64,000 nt of DNA, taken from NCBI RefSeq assembly GCF_021028975.2, contig NC_059427.1, forward strand, positions 161,820,001 through 161,884,000, read 5' to 3'. A model generated the notes under the pieces. The model was not told the origin of the DNA, did not search any database, and saw only the letters and a program-made list of their open reading frames with translations. Made by a program: the position numbers and the translations under genes. This DNA comes from Sphaerodactylus townsendi. Taxonomy: Eukaryota. Numbering within the stretch: the first letter of the stretch is position 1; every line of letters starts with the position of its first letter. Below, in pieces: positions 429 through 54,195 of this stretch.

Positions 429-615
429 GTGTTTTCCTGACATTTCACCTACAGTAGCCGTGCTTTCCTGACGTTTCACCTACATCAGATGATCCTCTGA
501 AGATGCCAGCCACAGATGCAGGCGAAATGTCAGGAAAAAATGCTACTGGAACACAGTCCTACAGCCTGGAAACAACACCCCAGTGATTCCATCTGTGAAA
601 GATTTCAACAATACA
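429..615 (+). mobile_element. Penelope-like (Poseidon-type) 3' pLTR fragment with short inverted duplicated pieces
   Basis: Matches 54150-54280; 434-485 holds two reverse-complement copies of TGTAGGTGAAA(C/T)GTCAGGAAA. Confidence 0.8.
493..535 (+). ncRNA. Minimal type-I hammerhead ribozyme motif (stem III CpG-mutated)
   Basis: TCCT-CTGAAGA-T-GCC..GGC-GAAA-TGTC-AGGA; stem I is TCCT/AGGA. Confidence 0.6.
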
Positions 616-1698
616 ATTCAAAACATGCTTTTCCTTTCCACTTAGAGGGGCCGTGCATTACCCAGAGTGAGATTCTAGGAAGATTGTGGGTGAGAGATGA
701 TCTTTCGGGAAGACAGAGTCTGGTCTTGGTTCCTCAGAGTGCCTGGTTATGAATGGCTAGGAAAAAAAGTGTTTTTAATGTCATTGGTCCTACTGACCAC
801 TTGAGTTAGAATATGGAGCTGGGAAAAATCCAATTTGGGTTAGAACTTCCAAGGGGTGCTTGAGAGTCTACCTGGAAATGAGAAATGAGATGACTAGACT
901 GGGTGGTGGACAAAGCATTAAAGTCCTGCTTGTCTGGGTGACTCTGGATGCCTGCTTTCATTTGGGGTGAAATTGATCATTTGGAAATTCTAAAAGGGGA
1001 AGGCAGCATTCACAGACATCAGCCTGGTTGAGTATAGAAATCCATGCATGTCCAAGACAGGCCATTCACAACACTACCCCAAAGCTTACCAAGATTGTAT
1101 TGGCGTATTAGTTCCATATACAGTTTGCAAATCTTAACTCTTTACTAGCAGAACAAGTACTCCAAGAAGTGGGGACCTTAGTGCCCCATTTCCCTTCTCC
1201 AGTCTGCCAGGGATGGATTCCAAGGGTGGGGGCTTCCAAATAACTAATCACCATGTCAATGTGTTGGCAGGGCAAAGGGGGAACTGTCAATGCAGCAATA
1301 GCCTTGTGGAGCTGGGTTAGGGATCAGAAAGCTCCTGACTGCAAACGAGTCCTTCTGTGAGTTCTGAAACAGTTCCAGGTCCCATTTCCAGACTCTTTGG
1401 GCATGAAAGGGGTAAAAGCTTATGTCTGGGCAATCTCTCTTGTGCAGAGAACCAGTGAGATGCTGGATCCACCCATACAGTGGACCCTTGTGCTAACAAT
1501 CCCATCCTTTCCTCATTCAATGCTAGCTATGCGGTGAAGATACTAAAGCAAGGTATTTTGATTAACTAGTCATTGATATTTCTTAACTGTGCAACTAGAA
1601 GAAATCTGCACGGAGTAGAGTATCAGACCCTAATTAGTAAAGTTGAGAAGTTTTGTTCTCCACTTTTCCTTGGCCTTCCCTTTAATCCCTTTGTAACA

Positions 1699-2217
1699 GC
1701 CGAATACCTATTTTATTAGCTGAAGCTAAACTTCAGCGGGCATTAACTCTCGCAAGATGCAATGTATTACCCTCAGCCCTACGCCAGGGGAGGGCTCTAA
1801 AACTTCCACATCACCAAACATATTGCATTTGCGTTATGAATTGCGAAGAATCTGTAGTGCATGTATTGCATTATTGCCCAGTTTATAGCACAGCTAGGGC
1901 CAAGCTTTTACCTCTCGTATTTGTGGGCACTGATTGTTTATCTGACTTGCAAACAACTGTATTTGTACTGAACAATGAAGATATGTGAACAATGAACAAT
2001 GCATATTTTAGAGATGACAGCCAAGTTTCTTTGTCATATTATTACGACAAAGTCATTCCAAAAATTTGTAATTACTACTTTTATTATGACTTTTACCTAA
2101 AAGGAATATTTTATTATCCTTTTTAACCCTAATGTGTTATATTATCTTCAATTGTTCATTTATTTTGGTCTTACTATGCCATTAAAGGTGATGATGATGA
2201 TGATGATGATGATGATA

Positions 2218-2263
<46 letters not shown>
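1699..2263 (+). mobile_element. RTEX-like non-LTR 3' fragment ending in ATGCCATTAAAGG+(GAT)n
   Basis: Degenerate RALTLARCNVLPSA...C.C...ESVVHVLHYC zinc knuckle; (GAT)n tail at about 2190-2263. Confidence 0.6.
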
Positions 2264-2264
<1 letters not shown>

Positions 2265-2364
2265 CAGTAGAGGAGATTCTAGGCGGACCTACTAAGGATT
2301 GTCCTCTAAAACTCTTTCTCTACCCAGCCCTACAGGAAACCTGCTAATGCATATTGGAAGCAAA

Positions 2365-3321
2365 ATGCCCAACCTAACCTCCACATCAGAATTTCTGCTC
2401 CTGGAATTTTCGAACATTCGAGAAACACAAATCGTATATTTCTTTGCATTCCTCACAGTCTACCTGACTGCAGTGACTGGCAATCTTCTTATCATCCTTG
2501 CTGTAGCCCTGGATCACCATCTGCACACTCCCATGTACTTCTTTCTCATGAACTTGGCCATTCTGGACCTTGGCTCAGTTTCTGTCATGGTACCCAAAGC
2601 CATGGCCAATTCCCTCACGAACAGCAGGTCAATTTCTCATTCAGGATGTGTAGCTCAAGTTTTCTTCTACATCTTCCTTGGAGGGTCAGACTTTTTCATC
2701 TTGACAATAATGGCACATGATCGGTATGTCGCTATCTGCAATCCATTGCAATACGAGACAATTATGCACAGAGGAGCCTGCATTCAGATGGCGGTCGGTG
2801 CATGGATTGCTGGTATACTCTATGGTGTGTTAAATACCGGAGGAACTTTTGCTATCACCTTCTGCTCCAACATGATCAATCAGTTCTTCTGTGAAATACC
2901 CCAGATTCTTAACATTGCCTGTTCAGACATCTATCTAGAAGTTGGTATGCTTATGTTTAGCTGTTCCCTTGGACTAGGATGCTTCATCTTCATTGCTGTC
3001 ACTTATGTGCACATTTTTGTAGCTGTGCTCAGAATCCCTTCTGCGCATGGACAGAAAAAGGCCATCTCCACTTGCCTTCCCCACCTCACTGTGGTCTCTT
3101 TGCTTCTCTTTACTGGCATCTTTGCTTATGGGAGACCTCGCAGTTACTCTTCATCAGACCTGAATGTTCTTTTTGCAATCATTTATGCTGTAGTTCCTCC
3201 ATTGCTCAATCCATTCATTTACAGCATGAGAAACAAAGAAATCAAGACCGCATTGTTGAAGCTCTCCTACTGTGGGCATTTTTCTAAATTAATTGCTAGC
3301 AAAACTTTTCTACAAAAATAA
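2365..3321 (+). CDS. Olfactory receptor, family-14-like, intact (318 aa)
   Basis: N-glycosylation site MPNLT; LHTPMYFFL, MAHDRYVAIC, FFCEIPQ, KAISTCLPHL, PPLLNPFIYSMRNKE; splice acceptor CTACAG ends at 2335, so the TTG start at 2299 is not used (in-frame ATG at 2347 is an alternative). Confidence 0.95.
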   Translation: MPNLTSTSEFLLLEFSNIRETQIVYFFAFLTVYLTAVTGNLLIILAVALDHHLHTPMYFFLMNLAILDLGSVSVMVPKAMANSLTNSRSISHSGCVAQVFFYIFLGGSDFFILTIMAHDRYVAICNPLQYETIMHRGACIQMAVGAWIAGILYGVLNTGGTFAITFCSNMINQFFCEIPQILNIACSDIYLEVGMLMFSCSLGLGCFIFIAVTYVHIFVAVLRIPSAHGQKKAISTCLPHLTVVSLLLFTGIFAYGRPRSYSSSDLNVLFAIIYAVVPPLLNPFIYSMRNKEIKTALLKLSYCGHFSKLIASKTFLQK

Positions 3322-3370
3322 GGCTGAATCTTCATGTGCAGAGAATTATTGTATTTTATTTATGCTTTAG

Positions 3371-3553
3371 CAGAGCCGTAGCAGGGGGGAACTGTGCCCG
3401 GGGCAAGTGTGTGCCCTGCGCCCCTGCCATGCCCCTGTCTGCCCCCGGCACACCCCGGCACACCCCAGAACTCCCCTGCCATGCCCCGCCATGCCCCTGC
3501 ACTGGTGCATGCCCGGTGCAAGATGTCCCCGCCCGCTGGGTGCTACGCCACTG
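3371..3553. mobile_element. hAT-type MITE 50 bp downstream of the OR stop
   Basis: TIRs CAGAGCCGTAGC / GCTACGCCACTG; TSD TGCTTTAG/TGCTTCAG. Confidence 0.75.
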
Positions 3554-3897
3554 TGCTTCAGATGTAATACACAAGAAAGATTAGATTGATTTTTTGAAGT
3601 ACTTGAGCAAGTGCAGTTAGAGGCAGGCATTTTTGCTTTTCCTCAGCATGCTCCTTTGGATGGCTGAAAATGTGGTTCTGAGTGCTGGCAATTTAACAAG
3701 GAATGGGATCCATCCCAACAATATGGCTGTAGTGAGGAGGGAGGAGATTTCAGAAAGAGATTTCAGACCAAATCTTGACCATTACATGACAATGGGAAAT
3801 GGACAATAGATTACACATCATATCTGACTGAAATATATCACCTCATGAATAATATGTAGGATTTGATCTGCATGAAATATAATATAGAGACAGATTA

Positions 3898-4050
3898 GAA
3901 GAAGAAGAAGAAGAAGAAGAAGAAGAGGAGGAGGAGGAGGAGGAGGGGAGGAGGAGGAGCAGGAACAGGAACAGGAGCAGGAGGAGGTGTTTGGATTTAT
4001 ACCCCCCTTTCTCTGCTGTAAGGAGACACAAAGGGTCTTATAATCTCCTT
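3898..4050 (-). mobile_element. Squam3-like SINE 3' end with (GAA)n/(GAG)n tail
   Basis: TTTGGATTTATACCCCCCTTTCTC..GGAGAC.CAAAGGG matches the SINE tail at 33100-33168. Confidence 0.7.
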
Positions 4051-4602
4051 TAAATGTTTGATTTCCTGTTTTCAGATGCTATTTTAGGGCAAGATTATAA
4101 GAAATCTAACTAGCAGAGACAAACTAAAATCCACGGATCCTTTGCCCTGATTGTCATATTTACAGGCTTCCAATTTTGTGGGTCTGATTTAGAAGATCTG
4201 CATTACATTATGATTGGGCTCTCTACATTTAGGGAATCAGGTTTGTTTCCACAGATAAATAAAAAAATCAGACCCCTGTTTGGTTCATCTGTCTGAGTCC
4301 CAATCTGTCATTCTTCCCATTGCTTCCATGATGAATCATATTGGTTTCCTATTAGAGAGAACAAAGAGGATCCCTACAGTTGTGACTTATGTTATCTGTC
4401 TGACCTTTTCCAGAGATAAATCCACACACTGGGGACCAACCAGTCGGCATACTTGTTGGGGCACTCTCAGTATTCCGCATTATCCCTTGGATTCATATGT
4501 TGAATACAGATCAAGAATGTTTATTGAACATGTCTCTGCACAGACTGAATGGCCCCTTCCGCACACGCAGAATAATGTGTTTTCAAACCACTTTCACAAC
4601 TG

Positions 4603-4820
4603 GGGTGCTGTGTGGTTTCCGGGCTGTATGGCCCGGAAAAATCCACTTGCAAACAGTTGTGAAAGGGTATTGTATTGTCGAAGGCTTTCAGATCCTCTGA
4701 AGATGCCAGCCACAGATGCAGGTGAAACGTCAGGAGAGAATGCTGCTAGAACACGGCCATACAGCCCGGAAACCACACAGCACTCCAGTGATTCCGGCTG
4801 TGAAAGCCTTCGACAATACA
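4603..4820 (+). mobile_element. Penelope 3' fragment with inverted pieces, inserted in the MITE
   Basis: TSD CTTTCACAACTG at 4591-4602 and 4821-4832; ends GAAAGCCTTCGACAATACA. Confidence 0.85.
4693..4735 (+). ncRNA. Minimal type-I hammerhead ribozyme motif
   Basis: TCCT-CTGAAGA-TGCC..GGT-GAAA-CGTC-AGGA. Confidence 0.7.
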
Positions 4821-5538
4821 CTTTCACAACTGTTTGCAAGTGGATTTTGCTATTCCGCACAGCTTCAAAGAGCACTGAAAACAGTTTGAAAGTGCATTAT
4901 TCTGCGTGTGCAGAAGGAGCCAATGTGTCTGCCAAGGAGAACCAGGTGTGGTGAGAATACAAAGGCACATGATAAAGGAACCAGTTTTCCTGTTTTCCCA
5001 TTCACATGTGTTCTGTGAAGGCAGCGATTGGAGGTCACAGAAACAATCCAGGTTGCTGTCACACCTTTGCAAGGAGACAACTCTCCTTTTGAAAATTGTC
5101 CTGTAACACATGAATAGCTACGCAGGCAAGGCTGAAATAAACCTCCACAGCCATACTGATGTCCCACAATATGACCAGCTGCATCTGCATAGCTATGCAG
5201 CTGCAAGCTACAAAACATTTTTTCAAAGGGAAAAGAGGTCACCCTGCAGTGGCCGGGCAATGGTGGGCAGCTTCTCCCTCACCATGGAAGATGGAGTGGA
5301 AGGGAAGGAAATAAAGCACCTCCTGCCTGGCCGTTCGCTCAGGAGCAGCTCCAACCTGGGATTTTTCAAAAGGATTGCTTGTTTAGCAATAAAAAAATTG
5401 GGTTGGAGGAAATAACATGGGGGCAGACATGTTTTGGGGGGTGGGACCTGTGTGAAGTACTTCCCCCCAAAATACAGGTTATATAGCATCCCACACCCAT
5501 GTTTGTTGGCCTGTGCAGAATGGGTCATAATTCTTCCT

Positions 5539-6052
5539 GGCCCTTGCCGCATGGGTGGAATATGGTGGCCTGGGGACAGCAAAAACACAGTCCCCAGGCC
5601 GCCATTCGCACAGGGGGCGCAGCTGCTTTGCAGCTGCGCCGACCTCGCACCGCCCGACCGGCGCCAAACCGGTGTTTCCAAACCACGCTTCCCCAGCGTG
5701 GTTTTTTGGAAACGCCGGCTGAAAGCCGGTGCCATGCGAACGGCAGCGGCTTCCAGGCGCTTCCCCCCCACTCCCTTCCTTCACTTACCTGCTCTCCGGC
5801 CCTCCGGCACATTGCCGGGCCTGGGGACACGCCCCCCTGCTCTGCGACGCGGAAGCAGGCGCGCACGGCAGGGGAGGCGTGTCCCCAGGCCCCGGCAACG
5901 CGCCGGAGGGCTGGAGAGCAGGTAAGTCGACCGGGCGATGGCGCCCAGCGGCGCCGTCTTCCCGGTTCTTTCTGCAACGCCGGTTCTTTCTGCAACACCG
6001 GTTCTTTCTGCAACACCGACCCAAGCCCTTCCGCCTCCGTGTGGAAAGGGCC
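5539..6052. mobile_element. GC-rich PIF/Harbinger MITE family D
   Basis: TIRs GGCCCTTGCCGCA / TGTGGAAAGGGCC; TSD CCT; internal 3x18-bp tandem CCGGTTCTTTCTGCAAC(G/A). Confidence 0.8.
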
Positions 6053-6583
6053 CCTGAGACATATTTGGTCTTACTTCATGCATAGCCATGTGTTGCTAGT
6101 GGTCTATTTCTGCTAGTTATAAAAATAGAAGTAATAATGCAACACAGGAAGAAGACTTTAGCAACACTTGGCAGTTAAGTCAGGTAAACTCTTGGGAGCC
6201 AATTGCCAGGAACAGAATGTCAAGTAAACTCTGCCTCATTCCTGATTCCTTTTTGATTACAAGTACATGGCAGCAAACCCTCTATGGAATGGCGCAAGCA
6301 AATGGATGCATGAATTTAAATAGCTGAGAGAGCAATCAAACGTTATCATCTCTCTTTTGTCAAGGACCATTATGACAGTTATTGATTCATTGGTTCAAAT
6401 CCACATCAAGGATGAAAAAAAATAGTATTCTGTGATTTGATCCTACAGCAGACACTGACACGGGGAACTTAAGAGGAAAAGAACTGGGGAAGAAAGACGA
6501 CTCCAATGTATTCAGTCATGTTTGATATTGAGAAATTTGTGTGTGAGTGTAGAATGACTGCAGCAAAATTACAAAGAGATTCA

Positions 6584-7230
6584 AAGCAAAGCAAAGCCTT
6601 TATTGGCATACATAAAACAACAGCAACAAAACACAGCAAACATAAAAAAATTTAAAAGGCAAAAAGGATAACCTCAGATACATACATATTATTACTAGCT
6701 CTGAATTATTTCCATAACAAAGCTTGCAACCTCTTCACAAAAAACAGAATCAGAATTGTTCAACAAGAGAAATAATCTAATTGAATCTGTTAACTCAGAT
6801 TGGAAGAGAGGGTGTAGATTGACATATTTAGATCTAATTTTAGCAAATTTAGTGCAATGTAACAGTTTAGCTGGTGGAGCCAATGTTTCAAATCTACGCC
6901 TAGAATTACAGCTACAGAACCTTTTAGATTTTTCCAGGTTATTAAACCTGCCATGTAGTAAGGCAGATGGCATAAAATTGAATCTAGCAATTGTGAAGGC
7001 TCTCCTTGAGCAGGGGTTAGTTAGAAAATGTAAGTTGTGGGCCATACGACCCTGCTCAAATGGAATTAAAAATTGGGTGGGAGAGCAAGTTCTTTTAGCT
7101 GCTAGATACAGTTCTGCAAATTCCCAATCTAAGAGTCGGTCTTTGAGTAGTTTGTACGCTTCTGAGCAGGAAAGAGAGTAGAGTGATTCGAGAGACAAAC
7201 TGATAGATACAATTTTCTTTTCTTTTTAAA
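6584..7230 (-). mobile_element. RTEX-like LINE 3' fragment
   Basis: ORF 6695-7198 RRAFTIARFNFMPSALLHGRF..FCSC..LLHC; tail ATGCCAATAAAGG(CTTTG)n. Confidence 0.65.
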
Positions 7231-7235
7231 AAAAC

Positions 7236-7661
7236 ATTTTTATTGATATTTTGGAATTATTACAGATTTATATTGTATATTTTGTATTCATCCTCCATAT
7301 CCTTTCCCCCACTTTCCCCCCTCCCCTCTGTTCTTCTTTTCTTTAGATGCGCAGCAGCAGGTCCATTCTTTTCAATCTTCTTGTCCATTTTTCTTCTGTA
7401 ATTCCAATTTCGTTTAGCCAGTCTTTGAATTCCATCCAAATCCACTTCATATCTTTTTGTTTTTCTTGCCATATTTGATTTCTTGACATTATGTCAAACA
7501 TTTCCAATTGTATTTGCTCCCATATATATTCCAACCATTTCTGCATTGTCCATATTTTTTTGTCTTTCCACCCCAGTGCTATTACTGCCTGGGCCGCTCT
7601 GATCATGAGTTTGAAAAGCTTTCTCTTTCTTTGTTCTATTATTGTGTAATCTGATATGCCT

Positions 7662-7753
<92 letters not shown>

Positions 7754-8548: not shown

Positions 8549-8606
8549 TAAAACACTTTCTCTGGTCAACCCTGCAGGTAATCTGCAAGTGAATATGGGA
8601 AGCAAA

Positions 8607-9566
8607 ATGCCCAACCTGACCTCCACAGCTGAATTTCTGCTCCTGGAATTTTCAGACATCTGAGAAGTACAGCTCTTGTACTCCTTCATATTCCTCACAG
8701 TATACCTGACTGCAATGACTGGTAACCTTCTCATCATCCTCGCCGTAGCCCTGGATCGCCATCTGCACACACCCATGTACTTCTTTCTCATGAATTTGGC
8801 CATTATGGACCTGGGATTAATTTCAGTCACGTTACTCAAAACTATAGCCAATTCCCTCCTGAACAGCAGGTCAATTTCTTATTTGGGGTGTGTCGCTCAA
8901 GTGTTCTGCCTTTTCCTGTTCGTAGGAGCAGATTTTGCCATTCTAACAGTAATGGCACACGATCGTCACATTGCGATCTGCAATCCGTTGCAATATGAAA
9001 TAATTATGCACAGAGGAGCCTGTATTCAAATGGCAGCCAGTGCATGGATTGCTGGTCTACTTAATGGCATGTTACAGACTGGAGGAACTTTTGCCATCAC
9101 CTTTTGCTCCAATATAATCGATCAGTTCTTCTGTGAAATACCACAGATGCTCAAACTCTCCTGTTCAGACTTGTATCTGGTGGAAGTTGGCTTGATGATA
9201 CTCAGCTCTTTCCTTGCATTAGGTTGCTTCATCTACATCATTGTCAGCTATGTGCGGATTTTTGAAGAAGTGCTCAAAATCCCTTCTGTGCATGGCCAAA
9301 AAAAAGCCATCTCCACTTGCCTTCCCCACCTCACTGTGGTCTGCTTGCTTATATTTACTGGCATCTTTGCCTATTTGAGGCCTCAGAGTTACACTTCATC
9401 TGACCTGAATGTTATTTCTGCAATAATTTATGCTGTAGTCCCTCCCTTGCTCAATCCGTTCATTTATAGCATGAGAAACAAAGAAATCAAGACTGCATTG
9501 CTGAAGCTCTCTGACTGTGCACATTTTTCTAAAATAATTGCTAGGAAAGCTTTTCCTCAAAAATGA
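8607..9566 (+). pseudogene. OR family-14-like pseudogene, premature TGA at codon 19 (8661-8663)
   Basis: ATG CCC AAC CTG.. GAC ATC TGA GAA, where the paralog at 2365 has CGA; DRY is DRH; the rest of the frame is open. Confidence 0.9.
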
Positions 9567-19369: not shown

Positions 19370-20280
19370 GGTGGATTCCACATGGGCCAAAAAACAGCGG
19401 TGTGAAAACGGTGTAAAATGGCTTAAAATGGTATAAAAGGGCTTACACCGTTTTCACACTGTTTCAGGGGTGTAACAAGGCAAACTGTAGCCCTGGGCAA
19501 AACCTGAGTTGGATGCCTGCCCCCGCATGGGCGGCCACCCCACCACGACCAATTTTGTTTTTGCAGCAGGACATTGGTGCCTTCAGGGAGATGGGGCTAT
19601 CCTTTTGAAGGTCCATAACTTTGGACCCCCTGAACCAAACTGCACCAAAATTGGGGGGTGCCATTAGGACAGTCTCCAGATGATACTCTGAAATTTTGGT
19701 GCTGATACATCCAAAAATGCACCCCCTGCAGGAACATCCCAGAAATTTGCCCAAGAATCTTTGTTCTGCATTGAGTTTTCTGCATTGCTGTCAACGGGGG
19801 TTGCAGGCTGGGGGGGGGGTACATTTCTGAAGGCACAGTCTCAAAACTTTCAGGGTCTCATCAGGAGACTTCCTTAATGATACCCCCCCGGTTTGGTGCA
19901 GTTTGGTTCATGGGGGCCAAAGTTATGGACCCTCAAAACTGTAGCCCCCATCTCCTATTAACTCCCATTGGAAACAATGGGGGATGGGGCACCCCCTTTG
20001 GGAGTCCATAACTTTGGACTCCCTGAACCAAACCTCACCAAACCTGGGGGGTAGCATAAGGACAGTCTCCTGATGATACTCTGAAATTTTGGTGCCACTA
20101 GCCTAAAAGCTGCGCCCCTGCAGGCCAAAAATGGAAAATTACTAAAAATACCCAAACACGAACCCTGCATTTTGATGCCCCCCACAAGGTGGTGCCCTGG
20201 GCAGCTGCCCACCTTGCCCAATGGGCATTACGCCCTTGCACTGTTTTCACACCGCTGTTTTTGGCCATGCGGAATCCGCC
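19370..20280. mobile_element. Harbinger MITE family C, interrupted by a hAT
   Basis: GGTGGATTCCACATGGGCCAAAAAACAGCGGTGTGAAAA ... TTTTCACACCGCTGTTTTTGGCCATGCGGAATCCGCC. Confidence 0.8.
19465..20238. mobile_element. Non-autonomous hAT with foldback internal modules
   Basis: TIRs CAGGGGTGTAA / TTACGCCCTTG; 8-bp TSD CACTGTTT. Confidence 0.85.
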
Positions 20281-22518: not shown

Positions 22519-24206
22519 ATGCACAATCTAACCTCTTTTTCTGATTTTTTGCTCTTGGGATTTTCAGACATTCAAGAACTACAGATCTTAAACTTCTTTG
22601 GGTTTGCAGCAATATATTTGGCAGCAATGACTGGTAATCTTCTCATTATTGTGGCTGTAGCCCTTGACCATCACTTGCACACCCCCATGTACTTCTTCCT
22701 CGTGAACTTGGCTATTGTGGACCTTGGCTTAATTTCTGTCCTTGTACCCAAAGCTATGGCCAACTGCCTCATGGACAGCCGGTCAATTTCTTACTTTGGA
22801 TGTGCAGCTCAAGTATTCATGTATCTCCTTTTTGCTGGTTCAGATTTTTCCTTTCTAGTTATAATGGCACATGACCACTACGTTGCTATCTGCAGTGCAT
22901 TGCAATATGAGACGATTATGCACAAGGGATCTTGCATTTGGATGGCAGCTGGAGCATGGATTAGTGGCCTCCTCTATGCTGTATTGCACACGGGTGGCAC
23001 TTTTGGCATTACCTTCTGCTCCAATATTATCAATCAGTTCTTCTGTGAAATTCCACAGTTACTGAAGCTGTCCTGCTCTGACTTATATCTAGTTGAAATG
23101 AGCCTCCTTATTTTTAGCTTTGTCTTAATGATGGGATGCTTCACCTTCATTGTTTTAACTTATGTCAAGATCTTTGCAATCGTACTCAGAATCCCTTCAG
23201 TGAAGGGTCAGAAAAAAGCCCTCTCCACTTGTATCCCTAAGAACATAAGAACATAAGAACTAGCCTGCTGGATCAGACCAGAGTCCATCTAGTCCAGCAT
23301 TCTGCTACTCGCAGTGGCCCACCAGGTGCCTTTGGGAGCTCACATGCAGGATGTGAAAGCAATGGCCTTCTGCTGCTGCTGCTCCTGAGCACCTGGTCTG
23401 CTAAGGCATTAGCAATCTGAGATCAAGGAGGATCAAGATTGGTAGCCATAGATTGACTTCTCCTCCATAAATCTGTCCAAGCCCTTTTTAAAGCTATCCG
23501 CACGTTGAGTGGCCATGCTCCCACCTCCTGTGGCAGCATATTCCAAACACCAATCACACGCGTTGGTGAAGAAGTGTTTTCCTTTTATTAGTCCTAATTC
23601 TTCCCCAGCATTTTCAATGAATGCCCCTGGTTCTGAAGTATTGTGAGAAAGAGAGAAAAAATTTCTCTCTGTCAACATTTTCTACCCCATGCATAATTTT
23701 ATAGACTTCAATCATATCCCCCCTCAGACGTCTCCTCTCCAAACTAAAGAGTCCCAAACGCTGCAGCCTCTCCTCATAAGGAAGGTGCTCCAATCCTTCA
23801 ATCATCCTCGTTGCCCTTCTCTGCACTTTTTCTATCTCTTCGATATCCTTTTTTGAGATGTGGTACGACCAGAACTGAACACAGTACTCCAAGTGCGGTC
23901 GCACCACGGCTTTATATAAGGGCATGACAATCTTTGCAGTTTTATTCTCAATTCCTTTCCTAATTATCCCCAGCATAGAGTTTGCCTTTTTCACACCTCA
24001 CTGTTGTATCTCTGCTTGTTTTCACTGGACTGTTTGCTTATGGGAGGCCTCCTGCGAACACGTCATCTGATCTTGATATTGTATTCGCAGTAATCTATGC
24101 TATACTCCCTCCACTGCTCAATCCATTCATCTATACCATGAGAAACAAAGCAATGAAGGGTGCTTTGTTGAAGTTGTTCAGATCTGAACATTTTTGTAAT
24201 CACTAA
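22519..24206 (+). pseudogene. OR family-14-like pseudogene split by a CR1 insertion in TM6
   Basis: MHNLT..KALSTCIP (to 23238) | HLTVVS..NPFIYTMRNK (from 23994); also DRY>DHY and AICNP>AICSA. Confidence 0.93.
23239..23993 (-). mobile_element. 5'-truncated CR1 inserted in the OR CDS
   Basis: (TAAGAACA)n tail at left; ORF KKANSMLGII..LEYCVQFW..LFSLERRRLRGDMIEVYK. Confidence 0.95.
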
Positions 24207-30646: not shown

Positions 30647-30893
30647 GGCTGATTCCGCATGGGCCAGAAACAGCAGTGTGAAAACGGTGTGAAAATCGTG
30701 TAAGAGGGTTTAAAATGGTGTAAAAGGGTTTATACTATCCTCTGAAGATGCCAGCCACAGACGCAGGTGAAACGTCAGGAGAGAATGCTGCTAGAACACA
30801 GCCATACAGCCCGGAAACCACACAGCACCCAAGGGTTTATACTGTTTTCACACCGTTTTCACACTGCTGTTTTTGGCCCATGCGGAATCAACC
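30647..30893. mobile_element. Harbinger MITE family C containing a Penelope fragment
   Basis: GGCTGATTCCGCATGGGCC / GGCCCATGCGGAATCAACC; TSD AAA. Confidence 0.85.
30737..30830 (+). mobile_element. 94-bp Penelope pLTR fragment (hammerhead motif at 30738-30780)
   Basis: 13-bp TSD AAGGGTTTATACT at 30724-30736 and 30831-30843; TCCT-CTGAAGA..GAAACGTC-AGGA. Confidence 0.85.
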
Positions 30894-34024: not shown

Positions 34025-34942
34025 ATGTCTAACCGAACGTTCATAACTGAATTTTTGCTCTTGGAGTTCACAGATCTGCGAGAATTTCAGATTGTTCATT
34101 TCATCGTCTTCCTGGCTTTGTACTTGACTGTGGTTGCAGGAAATCTTCTGATCATCTCTGTGATAGCTCTCGATCAACATCTTCACACCCCCATGTACTT
34201 CTTTTTGATGAACCTAGCCGTAACAGACCTTGGCTCCATTTCTGCCACCATCCCCAAATCCATGCTCAATTCCCTTATGAATACTAGGTTGATTTCCTAT
34301 TCTGGCTGTGTCGTGCAAGTTTATTTTTTTCTGCTGTTTGCAGCATTAGACTGCACCCTTCTCACAGTAATGGCCCATGACCGATATGTAGCTATCTGCA
34401 ACCCACTTCGCTATGAAACTATTATGAATAAAGGAGCATGCATTCAAATGGCAGCCAGCGCATGGCTTAGCAGCCTTCTCTATGCTATGTTGCACACGGC
34501 TACCACCTTTGCCATGAAATTCTGTTCCAATATTGTTGACCAGTTTTTCTGTGAGATCCCACAACTAGTTAAGATCTCTTGCTCTGATTTATATTTAGTT
34601 GAAAGCATACTTTTGATATTCGGCGTTGCAGCAGCATCAGGCTGCTTTGTGTTTATAGTCGTAACATACATACAGATCTTCACTACAGTACTCAGAATCC
34701 CTTCATCCCAGGGGAGGCAAAAGGCCTTTTCCACCTGTATTCCTCATCTCGTTGTTTTCTCCATGTTTCTATTTGGTGGCATGCTTGTCTACCTGAGACC
34801 GATACCCCACCCCTCTCCACATACCAACTTGGCATTTGCCATCATATACTCTGTAATCCCACCCATGATGAACCCTGTAATCTACAGCATGAGAAACAAG
34901 GAGATAAAGCTTGCAATGTGCAAACTTTTACACTTGAAGTAG
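34025..34942 (+). CDS. Olfactory receptor, family-14-like, intact (305 aa)
   Basis: MSNRT, LHTPMYFFL, MAHDRYVAICNPLRY, KAFSTCIPHL, PPMMNPVIYSMRNKE; strong acceptor (pyrimidine tract + TAG at 33993) argues against the ATG at 33923. Confidence 0.95.
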   Translation: MSNRTFITEFLLLEFTDLREFQIVHFIVFLALYLTVVAGNLLIISVIALDQHLHTPMYFFLMNLAVTDLGSISATIPKSMLNSLMNTRLISYSGCVVQVYFFLLFAALDCTLLTVMAHDRYVAICNPLRYETIMNKGACIQMAASAWLSSLLYAMLHTATTFAMKFCSNIVDQFFCEIPQLVKISCSDLYLVESILLIFGVAAASGCFVFIVVTYIQIFTTVLRIPSSQGRQKAFSTCIPHLVVFSMFLFGGMLVYLRPIPHPSPHTNLAFAIIYSVIPPMMNPVIYSMRNKEIKLAMCKLLHLK

Positions 34943-36266: not shown

Positions 36267-38614
36267 TAGGGTTGGTCAATACTAAAAAATTCGGTAAAAT
36301 TCGGATTTGGGTATTTTGGGGCATAAAATGATTTGTATGCCCGAATCCGAATCATAGCCGATTCGGATATGCCTGAAAATTTGGGTAAATCCGAAAAATT
36401 CGGGTCCGTTATATTATTTTTTTGAATTTTTTGTGTTTTTACACGTTTTGGCCTGCAGGGGGTGCAATTTTAAAGCTAGTGGCACTAAACTTTCAGGATA
36501 CCATCTGGAGACTGTCCTGATGATTCTCCCCAAGTTTGGTGCAGTTTGGTTCAGGGGGGGCAAAGTTATTGACCCTCAAAAAGGGTGCCCCATCCCCCAT
36601 TGTTTCCAATGGAAGCTAACAGGAGATGGGGGCTACACTTTTGAAGGTCCATAACTTTGGACCCCCAGAACCAAACTTCACCAAGCTTGGGGAGTATCAT
36701 AGGGACAGTACTTGTATGATACCCTGAAATTTTGGTGACAGTAGCTCTAAAACTGCACCCCTCACAGTCACCCAAAGAAATTTCCCCAGATTCTGTGCTC
36801 TGTAGTGGCTGGCTGGCTCCATTGCAGCCAATGGGAAATTTCTGTGGGAGGGCTGTGGAGTGCACATTTCTCATGGTAAACCCACAAAACTTTCAGGGTG
36901 TCTTCAGGAGAGTCTCTTCATGACACCATCCAGGTTTGGTGACCGTTGCTTCAAGGGGTTCAATGTTATGGGTAGGGTTCATCTCCCACTGCCCCCATAA
37001 GCAAAGTTCCTCAAACCTGGATGGTGTCATCCAAAGACTCTCCTGAAGATACCCTGAACATTTTGTGACTGTACCTTGATAAATGTGCACCCACCACCCT
37101 CCACCAGAAATTCCCCATTGACAGCAATGCAGAAGTCACTGCAGAAAAAAGAATCTTGGGCACCATCTCCTTAGCTCTCATTGGAAACAATGCGGGATAG
37201 AGGCCTCCCTTTGAGGGTCCATAACTTTGCCCCTCCCCCTGAACCAAACTGCACCAAACTTGGGGGATGCCATCAGGCCATCAGGACAGTCTCCTGATGA
37301 TACCCTGAAATCTGGTGCCACTAGTTTTAAAAATTCCGATTTTCATGTTTCACCGCTCCTGCACATGAAGCCTGCTGGAGTGAGTGAGCGGTGAAACACG
37401 CAAACCAGCATTTTTAAAGCTAGTGACACCAAACTTTCAGGGTATCATCAGGAGACTGTCCTGATGATACCAAGTTTGGTGCAGTTATTCAGAAGGCCAA
37501 AGTTATGGACTCTCAACGGTGTAGCCCCCATCCCCTATCAGCTCCCATTGGTAACAATGGGGGATAGTTGCACCCCTTTTGAGGGTCCATACCTGAACCA
37601 AACTGCACCAAACTTGGTGGGCAACATCAGGACAGTCACCTGATGATACCCTGATAATCTGGTGTCGATACATCTCAAAATGCGTCCCCTGCAGGCACCC
37701 CCAGAAATTTGCCCAAGATTCTTTGTTCTGCAGTGACTTAGCTGTATTGCTGTCAATGGGGAATTTCTGGTAGAGGGCTGTGAGGTGGACATTTCTGAAG
37801 GTATGGTCACAAAACTTTCAGGGTATCTTCAGGAGAGTCTCTGGATGACACCATCCAGGTTTGGGGAATTTTGCTTCAGGGGGTTTAATTCTATGGGGCC
37901 CAAAAAGGGTAGGGCCCATCTCCCACTGCCCCCTGAAGTAAAGTTCCCCAAACCTGGATGGTGTCATCCAGAAACTCTCCTGAAGATACCCTGAAAGTTT
38001 TGTGGGTTTACCATGAAAAATGTGCACTCCACAGCCCTCTATCAGAAATTCCCTATTGACAGCAATGCAGCTAAGTCACTGCAGAACAAAGAATCTTGTG
38101 CAAATTTCTGGGGGGTGCCTGCAGGGGTGCATTTGTAGATGTATCGGTACCAATATTTCAGTGTATCATCAGGAGACTGTCCTGATGATACCCTCCAAGT
38201 TTGGTGCAGTTTGGTTCAGGGGGGGGCAAAGTTATGGACCCTCAAAAGGGTAGCCCTCATCTCCTTAGTTCCCATTGGAAAGAATGGGGGATAGGGACAC
38301 CCCTTTTGGGGGTCCATAACTTTGGCCCCCCTAAACCAAACTGCACCAAACTTGGAGGGTATCATCAGGACAGTCTTCTGATGATACCCTGAAATTTTGG
38401 TGCTGATATGTTTAAAAATGCGCCCCCGGCAGGCCGAAACGTGAAAAAAACAAAAAAAAATAAAAACGCAATTCGGCTGGTGATCCGAATCCCATGGATT
38501 CGGATCTGTTAGGATTCGGACAGCACAGATTCGGACCCTGCTTGTCCGAATCCGTCCGAATCAGTGCAGATTCGGTAAAAATTCGGATTTGGACTGTCCA
38601 AATCTCCAACCCTA
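36267..38614. mobile_element. 2.35-kb non-autonomous hAT (Ac-like termini) with foldback interior
   Basis: TIRs TAGGGTTGG / CCAACCCTA; 8-bp TSD CACTCACC; subterminal TTCGG/CCGAA repeats. Confidence 0.9.
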
Positions 38615-46845: not shown

Positions 46846-46986
46846 GGCTCATTCCGCACAAGCAGGATAATGCACTTTCAAACTGCTTTCAGTGCTCTTT
46901 GAAGCTGTGCAGAATAGCAAAAGCCACTTGCAAACAGTTGTGAAAGTGGTTTGAAAACGCATTATTTTGCGTGTGCGGAAGGGGCC
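46846..46986. mobile_element. Harbinger MITE family A (inverted partner at 47406-47546)
   Basis: Family A TIRs and body. Confidence 0.88.
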
Positions 46987-49899
46987 CAAGAGACAAAAAG
47001 AGATGGTTTTCCATTGCCTGTCTTTGCATAGCCGTTGTGGATTTTTTTTGTTAGTCTCCCAACTAAATACTAACCAGTGTTTTTTTAATTCATTCTCACA
47101 ATTGATCAGCTTTTGAGATCATACAGTTGGAAGAGATCCCAAGGGCCATCAAGTCCAAACCCCTGCAATGCAGGAACACACAATCAAAGCACTCCTGTCA
47201 GGTGGCCATCCAGCCTCTCTTTAACAACCTCCAAAGAAGGAGACTCCACCATACTCCAAGGTAGTGCATTCTGCTGTCAAACAGCTCTTACTGTCAGGAA
47301 GTTTTTCCTGATGTTTAGGTGGAATCTCTTTTCCAGTGAGATCAGATCAAATGAGATCAGATTAGCTTGGGCAATCCATGTCAGGATGTTACACTATTAT
47401 ATTCTGGCCCCTTCCGCACACGCAAAATAATGTGTTTTCAAACCACTTTCACAACTGTTTGCAAGTGGATTTTGCCATTCCGCACAGCTTCAAAGAGCAT
47501 TGAAAGCAGTTTGAAAGTGCCTTATTCTGCATTTGCGGAATGAGCCTTTGAATAATATTCAGTGTAATCCAATGCAAAGTTACATCCAATGGTGAGATTT
47601 AAAAAATTTAACAACTGGTTGTTTACAAGCAGCATTTTAACAATCGGTTCTGCAGAAATGGTGCGAACCTGCTAAATCCCACCATTGGTTACATCCAAAG
47701 TTACTGAAATCAAAGGGCTTAGAACAAAATAATTCTGACCAACACCCCTTTCATACTGGCTACTTGTTTTGGCTTCTGGAAGAAAATGGATTTTTTAAAA
47801 GATTTCAAACACTTGAAATATTTTTTAAAAAAATTCTTAGGTTTGCACCTAATATGGTGATGGAGTTTGTGAGGTAAGGGTGTGTCTCAGGGAAGCTAAC
47901 AGCAATACTGTGAAGGAGTTCAGACCCTGTCAAAAGGCTAAACTCCTAGCAGAGTTACTCAAGATCACAGTTGAGACATCAGACTTACATGCATGTACCC
48001 GCCCTTTCGGAAGCCATATCATGTACCCCCTTTAGGAAGCAATGGTCATATCAGCAGAAGAGAATGATCACTTCCAGTTGTGACAGGTGCCAAGAAATCC
48101 TTGAAGGGTAGCTACTGAGCAGCAGAAGTAGTGGAAGGTGAAACTGGTAAAGATTCTTTTGTAGAGAATGGCAGTAACACTTTGGCTAACTCTGGTTAGT
48201 ACTGTACAGAAGGTGGCAATGGTCAACTACTTCTGATCATCTCTTACCTGGAAAAACCTGTGGTGTTTAATTTTTGTCTTCAGAAACCAAAGCAGATTTA
48301 AGGAGACCTTATGAAAGGAATGCAAGATTTCAATGATTGTTTAACCACAGCATGCATTATACTACAGTTTAATATTGTAATATATCTATTGTAGTGCATT
48401 TATTTGCCACATCGACTTCTCTCAGCATCAAGAAAAGTACAGAAATCAAACTGAATGGCTATTTCCTGTTTTTTTCACCAAAGGAGGCTGATCCTTGGAA
48501 TAAAGGAAAGAATTTAAATTATATTTTCATCTTTAACAGAGTAACACGAACAACAACACCAACACACAATATGACTGTGACGTTTTTCTTGAAGATGACA
48601 ACAAAGAAAAAACCCTAATCTATTATCTGCAAGATAATAATTTTTTTAAGAAATTGCTATCGTGACATTATTATTATGCTTTTTGTCCAAGGTATGCAGT
48701 GTCATGTTTGAAAGTCACAAAACACTGTTTTGAATCCAACTTTTGAACTAAACAGACTTATTGACCCATTTTTTTAAAATCCATTTTTAAAAAATCCTCC
48801 CAATGTTTTATTTCTGTTAAATCTTCCATAAATCATAATTTTTCTATTATCAAATGGCTGGAGGACAAAATTTTTTCACCTGTATCTGTTTTCTCATTTG
48901 TTCCTGGAAGTAAGGAGATGGGCCCGCATGAGAGAGATTTAGCCATGCAAATTCTTATATGTGATGTAAGGGCTGACTCAGTAGAACTATGTATTATATC
49001 TCAGGAGCAGAAACAGTAGAACCAATTAACACTGTTGCTTTTCAACTCTCTGAAGAATTATCAAAATGGGGACTTTGCTGTTCAGAGATTTGGAGACAAT
49101 ACAGAGCAGCCAGTGGTGGGATTCAAATAATTTTTTAAGGAAAGAATAAAGGAAAGAATTTAAATTATATTTTCATCTTTAACAGAGCCCCCAGGGGATG
49201 GGNNNNNNNNNNNNNNNNNNNNNNNNNNNNNNNNNNNNNNNNNNNNNNNNNNNNNNNNNNNNNNNNNNNNNNNNNNNNNNNNNNNNNNNNNNNNNNNNNN
49301 NNNNNNNNNNNNNNNNNNNNNNNNNNNNNNNNNNNNNNNNNNNNNNNNNTTGGGATTCAAATAATTTAACAACTGGTTGTTTATAAGCACCCCTTTAACA
49401 ACTAGTTCTGCTGAAGTGGTGCGAACCTGCTGACTCCCACCACTGAATACAGCCATCAGGAGTGAAAACTGATAATGGAATGGAGGTGAATCCAATCCAC
49501 TCAAGTTTCTAACTAGTGTCTATCTGAGTTACTTAGCACTTGTCTAACACACGAACAAATACCCCTCTAACATGTATGGACTTTTACAGGGTCTGTCTAT
49601 TTCAGGTCATACCAGGCATTTGGCCATCATGAGTGAAAACGGATAATGGAACAGAGGGGCAAATTCTGTGGGCATCCATTTGAAGGTGAACCTGATGCCC
49701 ACAGAACTAATGCCCAGCCATGCAAACTTCAGCAAGGTTGGCTAGTTCCTTTCAGGAGACACATCAACAGCCCTGCGGGAAATAAGTGCTCCCACCCAGA
49801 GCAAGACCCCCCACCGAGCCCCCAATAAAATCTCCAGCAAAGAGCTAGTTGGGCATAACAGCAAGCCCCATTGAAGTCTGTGGTGGGAAAAACAATTAA

Positions 49900-50400
49900 T
49901 TTTTCCCACCATAGAACTTGCTGAAGAGAGCTGGGAGATTCTGTGCTCTGAAGTGGCTCCATTGAAGCCAATGGAGAATTTCTGGGGTGCACATTTTTCA
50001 AGGTAGAGGCACAAAACTTTCAGAGCATCTTCAGGAGACTCTCTTGATGACACCACCCAAGTTTGGTGAACTTTGGGGAGTGAGGCACTTATTTGGGGGG
50101 ATCCATAACTTTGCCCCGCCTGAACGAAACCTTACCAAACTCGGGGAACATCATCAGGACAGTCCCTGGATCATACTCTGAAGTTTTGGTGCCATTAACT
50201 TTCAAACTTTGCCACAACTTGAAGAAACACCCTACAATACAAAAAAATTCAAATAGACCCGAATTTTTCGGATATACCCAAATATTCGAATATATCCGAA
50301 TATGTGATTTGTCTTATTCAGGCCTACAGATAATTTTAAGCCTGAATAAATCCAAATTTCTAGGGTATTTACCAAGCCTATTTTATTTCCGCTCCATCTT
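49900..50400. mobile_element. Fragment of the foldback-module hAT family
   Basis: CCATAACTTTG..ACCAAAC..CATCAGGACAGT modules and CCGAA subterminal repeats. Confidence 0.65.
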
Positions 50401-50404
50401 TAAT

Positions 50405-50945
50405 TAGTAAATCTTTATACCTAATCAAATTGTCACTGTAAGTTGGATTCATTAAAGAAGCTTCATATGGAGAGATCCAATTGGGGGTTTGTTTCACATT
50501 TATTTTTCTATATTCCTCCAAAATTTAAAAATTGATTTCCTTATTATGTGATCTGTAAACAACTTAAATTCTTTACCCTGAGCCGACCAGATATAAAAAT
50601 GCCAACCGAAAAAAGGTCAAAGCCTTCTAAGTTCAAAAGTTCCTTTTTCTCCAGAAGCATCCATTCTCTGAACCAGACTAATCCTGTGGCTTTATGATAA
50701 AGCTCCAAATTTGGTAAATTAAATCCTCCCCTTTTTATATTATATTATCACATAATATCTAGTAGCTAATTCTCGGTTTCCCCTTATCCCAAATAAAGTT
50801 CACCAGGTCTTTTCTACATCTATCAAAAATTTTCTTGGGATACTAATGGGTAAGTTTTGAAACAGAAAATTCATTTTTGCTAAAATGATAATTTTCATTA
50901 GGGCAATTTTTCCCAAAAAGAGACAAATTTAACTTAACCCAATTA
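50405..50945 (-). mobile_element. L1 ORF2 fragment
   Basis: WVKLNLSLFGKIALMK..NFLFQNLPI..GGFNLPNLELYH. Confidence 0.75.
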
Positions 50946-52214
50946 CATAATTTTTGAAGCAAGCACCAAAGCATTCTATAAGAAAAACATTAAAGAGTGT
51001 ACTTAAAAACATCCAGTAAAACATTTGAAATGTAGGCACAAATCAGTAAAAAGGAACAGAATGCTAGATATTATTAATAAAAAGATTGTCTGATAACAGT
51101 CTTATGTATCTAACTAGTGGGTTAGAAGGATAAGGAAGGATTGAAGAATCTATATGTAAACTGCTTTTCAGTCCAAGAAATAAGTTAGAGGGATAATGTT
51201 ATACTATGTATATTATCTATAGGTAAAGGAATAGAATAAAAAATTAAATAGCTTTTTTCTTTTTCTTTTTAAATGCTGGTCTAAATAGTAATGTAAAATC
51301 ATTTTAAAATAATAGGAAAAGCGGGCTGGAGGTGGGGGTGGGCAAAGAAAACCATTAGAAGAATTACATGCTAGGAAAAAGACAAAGACAGCTGTGAATC
51401 ACCACGGGCTGCAGTTGCCACTTGGGGTGGGTAGGTGGAGCTGCGCCAGCTGCAGCTGCCCAAGTATGGGCGGAAGCAGAACCCTGGCCTTGTTAGGTCA
51501 GGGCAGGTGTCACTGGAAGAGGGAAGGCAGACCAGAGCCTTTAAAAGGCCAAGCCCTCCCTTGTACTGGCCATGTACTTCGGCCGGCCAGCAATTTGCCC
51601 ATTCACCTCTTCCCTTTTGTACGGTCTTGTTAATGCATGTTATTCTGTCATAGCCACTGGGGGTTGGCGTATGGGTATTGATTTGGAAGGGCAGGGGAAG
51701 GGAGATAGGGAGCTATCTCTCCCCTCCTTTCGAGTGGCCAATGGCGGCAAGAGGCAACCGCCCTGCCGAACTCAGCAAAAGGGGAACACCTCTTGCCAGG
51801 AGCATCCGCCCGGCAGAGTCCCTCAGTGGAGCGAAGCTCCAGTACGAGGCAGCCACCCGCGGGAGCTTCACCACGATGCAGACACAATCAGATCAAGACC
51901 CACGCTAGGCCTCATGCTTCCATTTTTTGTTTAATAAAATGGCGATGGCTAATTGATTTATCCCAGCTAAGGTGTGGTGTGGTTATTGGGGGAGGGTCCA
52001 CTCAGGAAGTTCCCACCCTCGAACGGCAATTGAAAAGTGGCTTCCTGAAAAACCTCTGGTCAAAAGTAGTCTCAAAAGAGCTGGGGAAAAGTGGTGGTGG
52101 TGAGGGAGCACAGTGAAAACCAAAGGCACAAAAATGCATGCAGAAATGAAGAGATAAAACAAAGCAGTATGGGGCCAGAACCAATGGGGGGAAAGTTTAT
52201 GCAGAAAACTCTAA

Positions 52215-52788
52215 GGCCGTTTCCTCCGCCACTGAAGCCACAATGTAGGGGTTGAATTGGTCGGGTGTTACCACTGACGCCGACCCAACCCCCAACTAAG
52301 GGTACCCGTTCTCGCCACGTAATGGTCCCAGAAACCACCAGGAAGACGGCGCCGCTGAGTGCTGTCGCCCGGTCAACCTACCGTCTCTGCGGCCGTCCGG
52401 CACGTCACCAAGACCTGGGCACACGCCCCCTACCCTGCGTGACCTCTCTGGCATCGCAGGGCGGGGGGGCTTGTCCCCAGGCCTCAGCGACACGCCGGAT
52501 GGCCGCAGAGACGGTAGGTCGACAGGTCAGAGGGGGGAGGGATGGCGCCTTCGAGCCGCTGCCATGCTCGAAACCGCCATTTTCTGTAAACCTCGCTGGG
52601 GAAGCGAGGTTGGAAAACGACGGCTTTACGCGACCTTTTGCTTCGGCAGGAGAGCATAAAGCGGGCGCCGCTGCTGGCAGCAGCTGCATGCCCCTGTCTG
52701 GTGCGAGCAGCTCCCCTAGGGGACGGCATTTTGCCATCCCCAGGAGCACTGCTTACTTGGCCAGCCCCCACGTCTTGCGGAAAGGGCC
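52215..52788. mobile_element. GC-rich Harbinger MITE family D (reverse orientation)
   Basis: GGCCGTTTCC / GCGGAAAGGGCC. Confidence 0.8.
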
Positions 52789-52999
52789 AGAGTCTGAAGA
52801 GAGTCACCATATAAAGAGGCAGCAAAGCTCTGAATGCTGGTGTTGTTGGGCAATCTCAGGAAATTATCTCAGCCTTAATATCCTCTTTGTTGGCTCATCT
52901 AAGATAACTAGTGGATCAGTATGTGAAAAAGGATGCTGGACTAGATGGACCACTGGGCTGATTCAGCAAGCTTCACTGATGTACCTATGATTTCAACCA

Positions 53000-53488
53000 T
53001 TCTAGAGAATATCCCTTGGAACAAACCTCTCTCAGGGCGAGTTCCCTAACACCTTCCTCTCTTTGTCACTGCAGTTTACTCCCAACAGAACTTGGCTTAA
53101 CAAGACCCCTATGGAATCAGTTTGCCTTTTATTGCCTCCGAGAGGTCGTGGTTTGATTTGCTGCCTGCAATACAGACAGTTGTTTTTCAAGCCCAGGTCC
53201 ATTAAACACCTGGATCCAGAAGTTGCCAGCTGGGAAGCTCTGGTTTTTCTACAAAGGGATACAGGTTACTTAAATGGAATTCATCTGGGCAGACTTACTG
53301 GGGGTCTGGCTGGCTGTGAAATTCTGCTTTCTGCCTTTAGCCAAAATCTATGGAAAGGGTCAGACTGAACCTTCAATAGAGGTCCTTCGTGTTCACAAGT
53401 ATCTTCCTTCTTCAGCTATCAAAGGTCCTCTGCCATTGAGGGAGTAAAGCTGAGGGATTGCATGGCACAAGGAAGTTTACTGGTGAGT
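53000..53488 (+). promoter_or_regulatory. Candidate promoter and non-coding first exon of the OR at 57384
   Basis: Paralogous to 62215-62829; conserved CTTAA..AGACCCC.ATGGAA (homeodomain + O/E-like) and TG|GTGAGT donor at 53483. Confidence 0.55.
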
Positions 53489-53680
53489 AAGGAAAGTCCT
53501 TTCAAGAGGTGCCTTGTGAATGTCTAATGCTAGCCGGCTCTAAGAGAAAAGATGGCTATCGTATTGAACCGGTTTAATGTGAAGACTGCTTCAGGCTTAA
53601 TCAGTCAAAAATCAAGCAAAGGAAAGACTTGGGTGCTGTGTGGTTTCCGGGCTGTATGGCCGTGTTCTAGCAGCATTCTC

Positions 53681-53723
53681 TCCTGACGTTTCGCCTGCAT
53701 CTGTGGCTGGCATCTTCAGAGGA
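53681..53723 (-). ncRNA. Minimal type-I hammerhead ribozyme motif
   Basis: Reverse complement reads TCCT-CTGAAGA-TGCC..GGC-GAAACGTC-AGGA. Confidence 0.75.
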
Positions 53724-54152
53724 TCTGATGGTAGGAATGGAAAGCAAGTGGAGTATATATACTGTGAGGTGAAAAGGTGAGGCCCTCTGAATAGAGTAGC
53801 CTGGCATGTGAGTCACAGAGGAAGGAAGGGAAGAAACCATGAAAATGAACAGAATTTGGCTGCCAGTGTTGAAAAACTCTAGAATCAAGACAGTGACGAT
53901 CCTGGCTCAAAGGCTCCACACACAAAAACACAGGGACAACTTCTGATAGACTACTTAGCACTCAAAGGGAGACAAGACTTTTCAGGATACTACTATTTAG
54001 ATCCATTCAACTATTGCCCTTGCTAGCTTCATTGTTACTCCCATGCTACAGACTTCTCTGTGACTCACATGCCAGGCTACTCTATTCAGAGGGCCTCACC
54101 TTTTCACCTCACAGTATATATACTCCACTTGCTTTCCATTCCTACCATCAGA

Positions 54153-54195
54153 TCCTCTGAAGATGCCAGCCACAGATGCAGGCGAAACGTCAGGA
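54153..54195 (+). ncRNA. Minimal type-I hammerhead ribozyme motif
   Basis: Intact core CUGAAGA..GAAA, GUC cleavage triplet at 54189-54191, palindromic ACGU in stem III. Confidence 0.75.

Follow-up and report, generated by a model that had tools for sequence, protein, structure and literature searches.

Five hammerhead ribozyme motifs lie in a 64,000-nucleotide stretch of the Sphaerodactylus townsendi genome (contig NC_059427.1, positions 161,820,001 to 161,884,000; hereafter the window), which also carries six olfactory receptor (OR) loci. We confirm that these motifs are minimal type-I hammerheads located in the 3′ pseudo-long terminal repeat (pLTR) ends of four 5′-truncated insertions of a Penelope-like element (PLE). 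A first-pass annotation had remarked that a sense copy of the motif precedes four of the five forward-strand ORs, so that self-cleaving motifs might be present in OR pre-mRNAs. The association with ORs is, however, very probably a chance clustering of known transposon debris: the position of the motifs before ORs is likely to be fortuitous, since the arrangement is not repeated at the remaining ORs examined in the genome.

A generic descriptor for minimal type-I hammerheads, requiring the core and paired stems I and II, was run across both strands of the window and returned exactly five matches, identical to the motifs already described; direct sequence matching likewise confirmed their coordinates, strands and letters, including the mutated ATGT of the 493 copy. 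The window contains no further whole motif, the additional antisense pLTR fragments being incomplete in this respect, and when the window was simulated 30 times with an order-1 Markov model, no simulation yielded a descriptor match. The core (CUGANGA/GAAA) and an NUH cleavage triplet are present in all five copies, as are a TCCT/AGGA helix I and an unpaired U before helix II, whilst the G10.1-C11.1 pair is found in three of the five. Stem II is longer than was stated at first pass, comprising 3 bp, an A.A mismatch and a further 2 bp, with a 7-nt loop. The palindromic ACGU sequence survives in four of the five copies, where the predicted intermolecular helix has an energy of -3.1 kcal/mol, against +1.2 kcal/mol for the AUGU of the 493 copy. 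The window motifs are predicted to lack a stable helix III, as is the case for PLE minimal type-I hammerheads. Changes at conserved positions affect three of the four sense copies (loss of G10.1-C11.1 in the 4693 and 30738 copies, loss of the ACGU palindrome in the 493 copy) and all three are C>T at CpG, the pattern that would be expected of neutral decay, with the CpG sites of copies presumably decaying after insertion. The covariance-model check proposed earlier did not succeed: the Rfam models report none of the five motifs at E<=1, and the 19 matches in the window at this threshold include no hammerhead family, only sub-threshold microRNA and CRISPR models on microsatellites and on hairpins of miniature inverted-repeat transposable elements (MITEs). 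Folds of the monomers are no more stable than those of shuffled sequences (z of 0 to -0.8), a result that weighs neither way.

Words resembling the hammerhead core, of the type CTGATGATA, also occur in a nested direct and inverted repeat family at 36420-38470, 19590-20160 and 49940-50220; at none of these three sites does this family match the hammerhead descriptor.

Table 1. Hammerhead motifs, Penelope-like insertions and OR loci of the window, with the full-length reference copy L206. TSD, target-site duplication.
Feature	Position	Strand	Details
Hammerhead	493-535	+	43 nt; ATGT replaces ACGT (AUGU in RNA); predicted cut after 531
Hammerhead	4693-4735	+	43 nt; G10.1.U11.1 wobble
Hammerhead	30738-30780	+	43 nt; G10.1.U11.1 wobble
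Hammerhead	53681-53723	-	43 nt
Hammerhead	54153-54195	+	43 nt
Inverted copies (two) of hammerhead 3′ half	432-453, 464-486	-	short pLTR fragments without whole motif
pLTR copy, 5′-truncated, older subfamily	493..615	+	at edge of CR1-type LINE (long interspersed nuclear element) fragment (1-426); no TSD seen
Antisense pLTR fragment	about 4599-4690	-	without whole motif
pLTR insertion in palindromic MITE	4603..4819	+	sense pLTR 4688-4819 accompanied by inverted 5′ pieces; 96.9% to L206
TSD of 4603..4819 insertion	4590-4602/4820-4832		13 bp
Short pLTR insertion in second palindromic MITE	30737..30833	+	without tail; 96.9% to L206
TSD of 30737..30833 insertion	30724-30736/30831-30843		13 bp
Single Penelope insertion, inverted 5′-truncated copy plus sense copy	53630..54278		hammerheads 53681-53723 (-) and 54153-54195 (+)
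TSD of 53630..54278 insertion	53617-53629/54279-54291		13 bp
OR1, intact	2365..3321	+	PF13853 E=3e-42; AG acceptor candidate ~30 nt before ATG
Predicted OR2 promoter and non-coding exon block	6053..6557	+	O/E-like site 6188-6197; donor candidate 6507/6508
OR2, pseudogene	8607..9566	+	premature TGA at codon 19
OR3, interrupted	22519	+	LINE-derived insertion about 23257-23988; 3′ part of gene resumes ~23989
OR4, intact	34025..34942	+	PF13853 E=2e-48
OR5	46704	-	
OR6, intact	57384..58316	+	PF13853 E=2e-52; AG acceptor candidate ending at 57376
L206, full-length copy	G000:C3:109286-112963		open 819-aa open reading frame; Pfam RVT_1 E=1.1e-12; YVDD at residue 506

The exact motif pattern occurs 13,948 times in the 1.81-Gb genome (6,988 forward and 6,960 reverse matches), equivalent to 7.7/Mb or 0.49 per 64 kb, compared with no matches genome-wide for the reversed pattern used as a control. 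All window copies have in common a segment of 95-130 nt that begins with the motif, and longer genomic copies continue from it into an open reading frame (ORF) for reverse transcriptase (RT). In the full-length copy L206 the ATG of this ORF lies within the motif itself, at motif offset 10, bearing out the earlier identification of the motifs as Penelope pLTR hammerheads. The L206 pLTR is 96.9-98.1% identical to those of the window copies and 82.8% identical to the 493 copy, the variants of which are held in common with other older copies in a subfamily pattern. At the C-terminus of the L206 protein, from residue 700 onward, a GVY...YIG motif with Cys/His residues can be recognised by eye, but Pfam gives no GIY-YIG match; nor did Pfam return any matches for the endonuclease (EN) region or for three partial PLE ORFs, and a search of the PDB produced only weak RT matches (best E=6e-4). 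The 3′ ends of copies fall at two fixed points relative to the ATG (+84/+86 and +118); of the ends in the genomic sequence examined, 56 are long and 34 short. Direct target duplications of 8-14 bp are found at 45 of the 86 ends examined, 29 of them 12-13 bp in length. Copies often bear an inverted 5′ piece, as at 53630-54278, 4603-4819 and 432-615 in the window, where they are either singles or inverted pairs; the tandem head-to-tail hammerhead repeats of a non-LTR retrozyme are not present. Many copies show 96-98% identity at the protein level, and this, together with the uninterrupted ORF of L206, points to a young family in which activity may persist.

That the five motifs stem from four independent insertion events, as previously proposed, is supported by the differences between their hosts (the edge of a CR1-type fragment, two different MITEs and unique DNA) and between their 13-bp TSDs, none being seen for the 493 copy. 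The same differences rule out a single ancestral insertion duplicated along with the OR genes. The arms of the 53630..54278 insertion form a 200-nt inverted repeat with 98% identity. At the 5′ junction of the 4603..4819 insertion (4599-4690), an inverted element tail is joined in a fold-back-like manner to ~29 nt matching downstream target DNA; inverted downstream target DNA is seen at three of the 86 insertion ends examined, all in palindromic MITE hosts. The ~145-bp palindromic MITE family has 12 copies in the window (4550-4925, 8408, 9574, 25870, 27822, 28730, 30452, 31659, 33307, 46846, 47406 and 55436), one of which lies ~60 bp before the OR2 ATG. The repeat content would suggest a lizard or other squamate as host.

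The sense copies lie 1872, 3914, 3287 and 3231 bp upstream of forward-strand OR ATGs, matching the 1.8-3.9 kb given in the first-pass annotation; two of the six OR loci of the window are not intact, OR2 being a pseudogene and OR3 interrupted. Whether this arrangement recurs was assessed in 1.8 Mb of OR-dense DNA picked from OR search matches (the C3 flanks, two C15 blocks and one C2 block). Together with the window, this comprises 167 OR loci in 1.86 Mb, fragments shorter than 600 bp being excluded; against the 727 OR candidates recorded, the sample represents approximately one quarter of the repertoire, the C6 cluster being left out. Listing OR genes with a degenerate DNA pattern was tried and discarded (34 matches versus 54 in the control), and all OR rows were used since the flag for intact ORs was loose enough to pass the OR at 8607. 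Expected counts were obtained by circular shift with an upstream cut-off of 4 kb. For the within-window probabilities given below, close motif pairs were merged to events, at 0.88 events per motif as judged by eye from the first 100 matches listed.

Outside the window, the OR clusters contain 11 strict motifs in 1.80 Mb (6.1/Mb versus 7.7/Mb genome-wide), and a sense motif occurs in the 4 kb upstream of only two of 161 ORs, where 2.29 are expected (P=0.70; 95% upper bound 4.4%). For the strict motif the counts are thus two sense upstream, with one antisense upstream, five sense downstream and one antisense downstream. In the core-intact set of 29 motifs the corresponding figures are three (4.58 expected), six, seven and three, and for all 60 whole motifs they are nine (9.86 expected), ten, ten and 13. 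The proposed OR-specific placement and strand bias was not upheld: with the two looser motif sets, sense copies upstream are no more frequent than antisense ones (three versus six and nine versus ten). The accompanying caution that the arrangement may be chance agrees with the sample of 167 loci, in which neither enrichment nor a strand bias relative to background was supported. A dense OR cluster of 231 kb with 28 OR rows (G000:C15:22.25-22.48 Mb, L031-L054) lacks any pLTR match, although the block average (96 in 1.86 Mb) would predict roughly 12, and it is this empty stretch that holds most of OR1's closest paralogues (about 75-82% identity). The window is an outlier among the OR loci sampled, not an instance of a rule. 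Where ORs follow one another at intervals of about 11 kb, as in this cluster, a local run of four insertions could fall upstream of ORs by chance.

A number of points weigh against this conclusion. The probability of at least four insertion events in 64 kb is ~0.001, amounting to about 30 windows genome-wide, and given four events, the probability that four distinct ORs each have an upstream sense copy is 0.0008, 0.002 or 0.006 at cut-offs of 4, 5 or 6 kb. Four of the six window ORs have such a copy, against two of 161 outside (Fisher P=7e-6), and once the window is counted in, the strict test over 0-4 kb rises to six ORs against 2.69 expected (P=0.026), an excess for which the window itself is responsible. 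These within-window values are post hoc, both the distance and the window having been picked after viewing, but they are not nothing. Outside the window there are only 11 strict motifs, a number with which a modest bias might escape detection, and the OR promoters and introns considered below are predictions from sequence.

Twelve aligned close paralogues have in common an upstream block of ~500 bp, in which a site that we take to be O/E-like and an AAG|GTA donor candidate are both conserved. The block may act as an OR promoter. For OR1 the predicted donor lies ~3.5 kb before the ATG, ~1.1 kb to the left of the window, so that the 493 copy would fall in the OR1 5′-untranslated region (5′-UTR) intron. 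For OR2, by contrast, the block begins at 6053, which would place the 4693 copy about 1.4 kb (about 1360 bp) upstream of the promoter and outside the intron; the insertion that carries it is 1372 bp from the OR1 stop codon, as close as it is to the predicted OR2 promoter block. A hidden Markov model of the block found no match upstream of OR3, OR4, OR5 or OR6. Alignment of OR6 with the next OR revealed a G|GTGAGT donor candidate in both, at 53482/53483 in the window, and as the 53.6-kb insertion begins ~150 bp beyond it, the 54153 copy would lie within the OR6 5′-UTR intron. The earlier suggestion that the motifs could occupy OR 5′-UTR introns agrees with these predictions for the 493 and 54153 copies but not for the 4693 copy. 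Across the 13 genes with a predicted block, a whole motif lies between block and ATG in one only, OR1.

The stranded copies in the window are predicted to be catalytically silent. For both of the putatively intronic copies, a neighbouring inverted copy would occupy the motif by base pairing: the 54153 motif is wholly paired in the predicted fold by its inverted twin, transcribed before it, and forcing the hammerhead fold costs 85 kcal/mol, whilst for the 493 motif the predicted cost within 343-643 is 20.3 kcal/mol, owing to the antisense fragments just upstream (432-453/464-486). For the 4693 and 30738 copies, both with G.U at 10.1-11.1, the predicted cost is merely 3-4 kcal/mol. The only sense pair that might share a transcript is that formed by the 493 and 4693 copies across OR1. 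Its helix III is predicted at -1.3 kcal/mol, and the 4693 copy is preceded by an AATAAA at 4258. A single minimal hammerhead is described as not cleaving and dimers as cleaving at a low level only (PMC4209133), and the motif of PAc, a Poseidon element of Anolis carolinensis, as cleaving only when the element's protein is added, as being dispensable for insertion in vitro and as having no RNA-seq reads that end at the cut site (PMC11167929).

The window family resembles PAc in several respects (PMC11167929). In both, the ORF ATG starts stem II and is preceded by C3 and G8; both have two 3′ ends ~30-40 nt apart (the tail), the later at +111-118 in PAc and +118 here; and both encode an RT, followed in the window family by a putative C-terminal region of the GIY-YIG type. 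The predicted cut is 26 nt after the ATG in PAc versus 29 nt here, and the host is different. Assignment of the window family to the Poseidon clade would rest on this shared architecture. In PAc, reverse transcription begins at two internal sites, which define the tail (PMC11167929). By analogy with the Anolis homologue, reverse transcription in the window family may start within the RNA, ~85-118 nt after the ATG, so that even the shortest insertions would usually retain the hammerhead, giving rise to the roughly 14,000 copies. The ribozyme likewise has no stable helix III and would be expected to cleave only in dimeric form or when the element's protein binds it. Truncation together with an inverted copy is part of PLE anatomy more generally (PMC8557442).

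Metazoan PLE minimal hammerheads (PMC4209133) have the same core, 4-bp helix I, unpaired nucleotide separating position 9 from position 10.1, G10.1-C11.1 pair and palindromic 15-16 region, and like the copies described here they occur as thousands of single copies from truncated elements and as opposite-strand pairs 100-700 bp apart. Helix II differs, however, comprising 3+2 bp around a mismatch here versus 7-8 bp in the Schistosoma motifs (PMC4209133), and the window family is very homogeneous in sequence. The amniote hammerheads of RECK, CTCL and DTNB (PMC6155905) are also of type I, derived from retroelements and intronic (the last by prediction only for the window copies), but they are conserved across lineages, whereas the window copies are young, multi-copy, absent from paralogues and a related organism, and without a monomer helix III. 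The human OR4K15 ribozyme (PMC11620745) is likewise a self-cleaving motif at an OR locus, although it is twister-sister-like, antisense to the coding region and unrelated to hammerheads or Penelope; it was the only OR ribozyme to surface in a literature search, largely without subscription papers, which found no link between Penelope hammerheads and OR genes.

Evidence on the age of two of the insertions comes from sites that lack them. In run X4, from a related organism (19 differing letters in 430), a contig joins 53629 directly to 54292 onward, giving an empty site with a single copy of the TSD; the junction is exact, though this is one contig in one run. Runs X1 and X2, which possibly derive from the assembly's own source and are not independent, continue into the 53.6-kb insertion. 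Alignment with the closest paralogue of OR1 runs collinearly through the CR1 fragment and the site of the 493 pLTR insertion, but this paralogue lacks the insertion. At these two sites the absences do not fit a conserved, domesticated hammerhead of the RECK type.

How, then, might a clustering of this kind have arisen other than by chance? One explanation is a local insertion bias, in which Penelope is drawn to the small C3 cluster or to chromatin that is open close to OR promoters, producing a mutational and non-functional cluster. The C3 block does carry seven strict motifs in 264 kb, against nine in 1.6 Mb of other OR blocks, and two of the four insertions landed in palindromic MITEs, but only two strict motifs are found in the 200 kb flanking the window, chromatin bias alone gives no strand preference and other ORs show no upstream excess. 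We regard such a bias as improbable. We consider it very improbable that the sense hammerheads have recently been exapted, cutting OR pre-mRNA from within 5′-UTR introns, whether singly, as dimers or aided in trans by Penelope protein, and so lowering the frequency with which these ORs are chosen. The arrangement within the window is certainly an unlikely one, the 493 and 54153 copies lie between a predicted donor and acceptor, and domesticated intronic hammerheads do occur in amniotes (PMC6155905). Set against this, the pattern is unreplicated at 161 ORs, and the insertions are absent from paralogues and, at the OR6 site, from X4. Both intronic copies are predicted to be sequestered by antisense RNA transcribed before them, OR2 is a pseudogene with its copy upstream of the predicted promoter, G10.1-C11.1 is gone in two copies and the ACGU palindrome in one, and the sole shareable sense pair has both a weak predicted helix III and the intervening AATAAA. 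A chance clustering of Penelope debris thus remains our preferred explanation. For Xenopus, a preprint describes a depletion of related retrozymes from both introns and exons (10.64898/2026.07.22.740005), which would fit selection against, not for, insertion into genes.

PF13853 was found in all three ORs tested (OR1, OR4 and OR6). The closest paralogues of the ORs at 2365-46704, with their upstream DNA, are located on another chromosome (G000:C15:22.28-22.58 Mb), which suggests that the small C3 cluster was derived from C15 by segmental duplication or transposition; the nearest paralogue of OR4 (91%) is a fragment broken at its 5′ end. Elsewhere, a Cys/Pro-rich ORF (L007:209-577, reverse strand) lies ~0.9 kb from an inverted pLTR pair and resembles what we take to be a reptile gene of the corneous beta-protein or epidermal differentiation kind.

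Penelope pLTR hammerheads were already known, in reptiles as elsewhere, and that of an Anolis element has been characterised biochemically, so the finding is of little significance as it stands. Were OR pre-mRNAs to be cut, this would represent a new route for tuning singular receptor choice, although the present data point away from it. We give only a slender chance to the idea that intact Penelope hammerheads are latent, protein-gated cut sites that the RT-EN protein switches on in host pre-mRNAs; if true, gated cutting in the 5′-UTR introns of OR1 and OR6 would act in trans to alter the choice of receptor or the levels of host mRNAs. For the cutting of host transcripts in vivo, the ~14,000 near-identical and apparently young copies of this family would offer a well-powered system.

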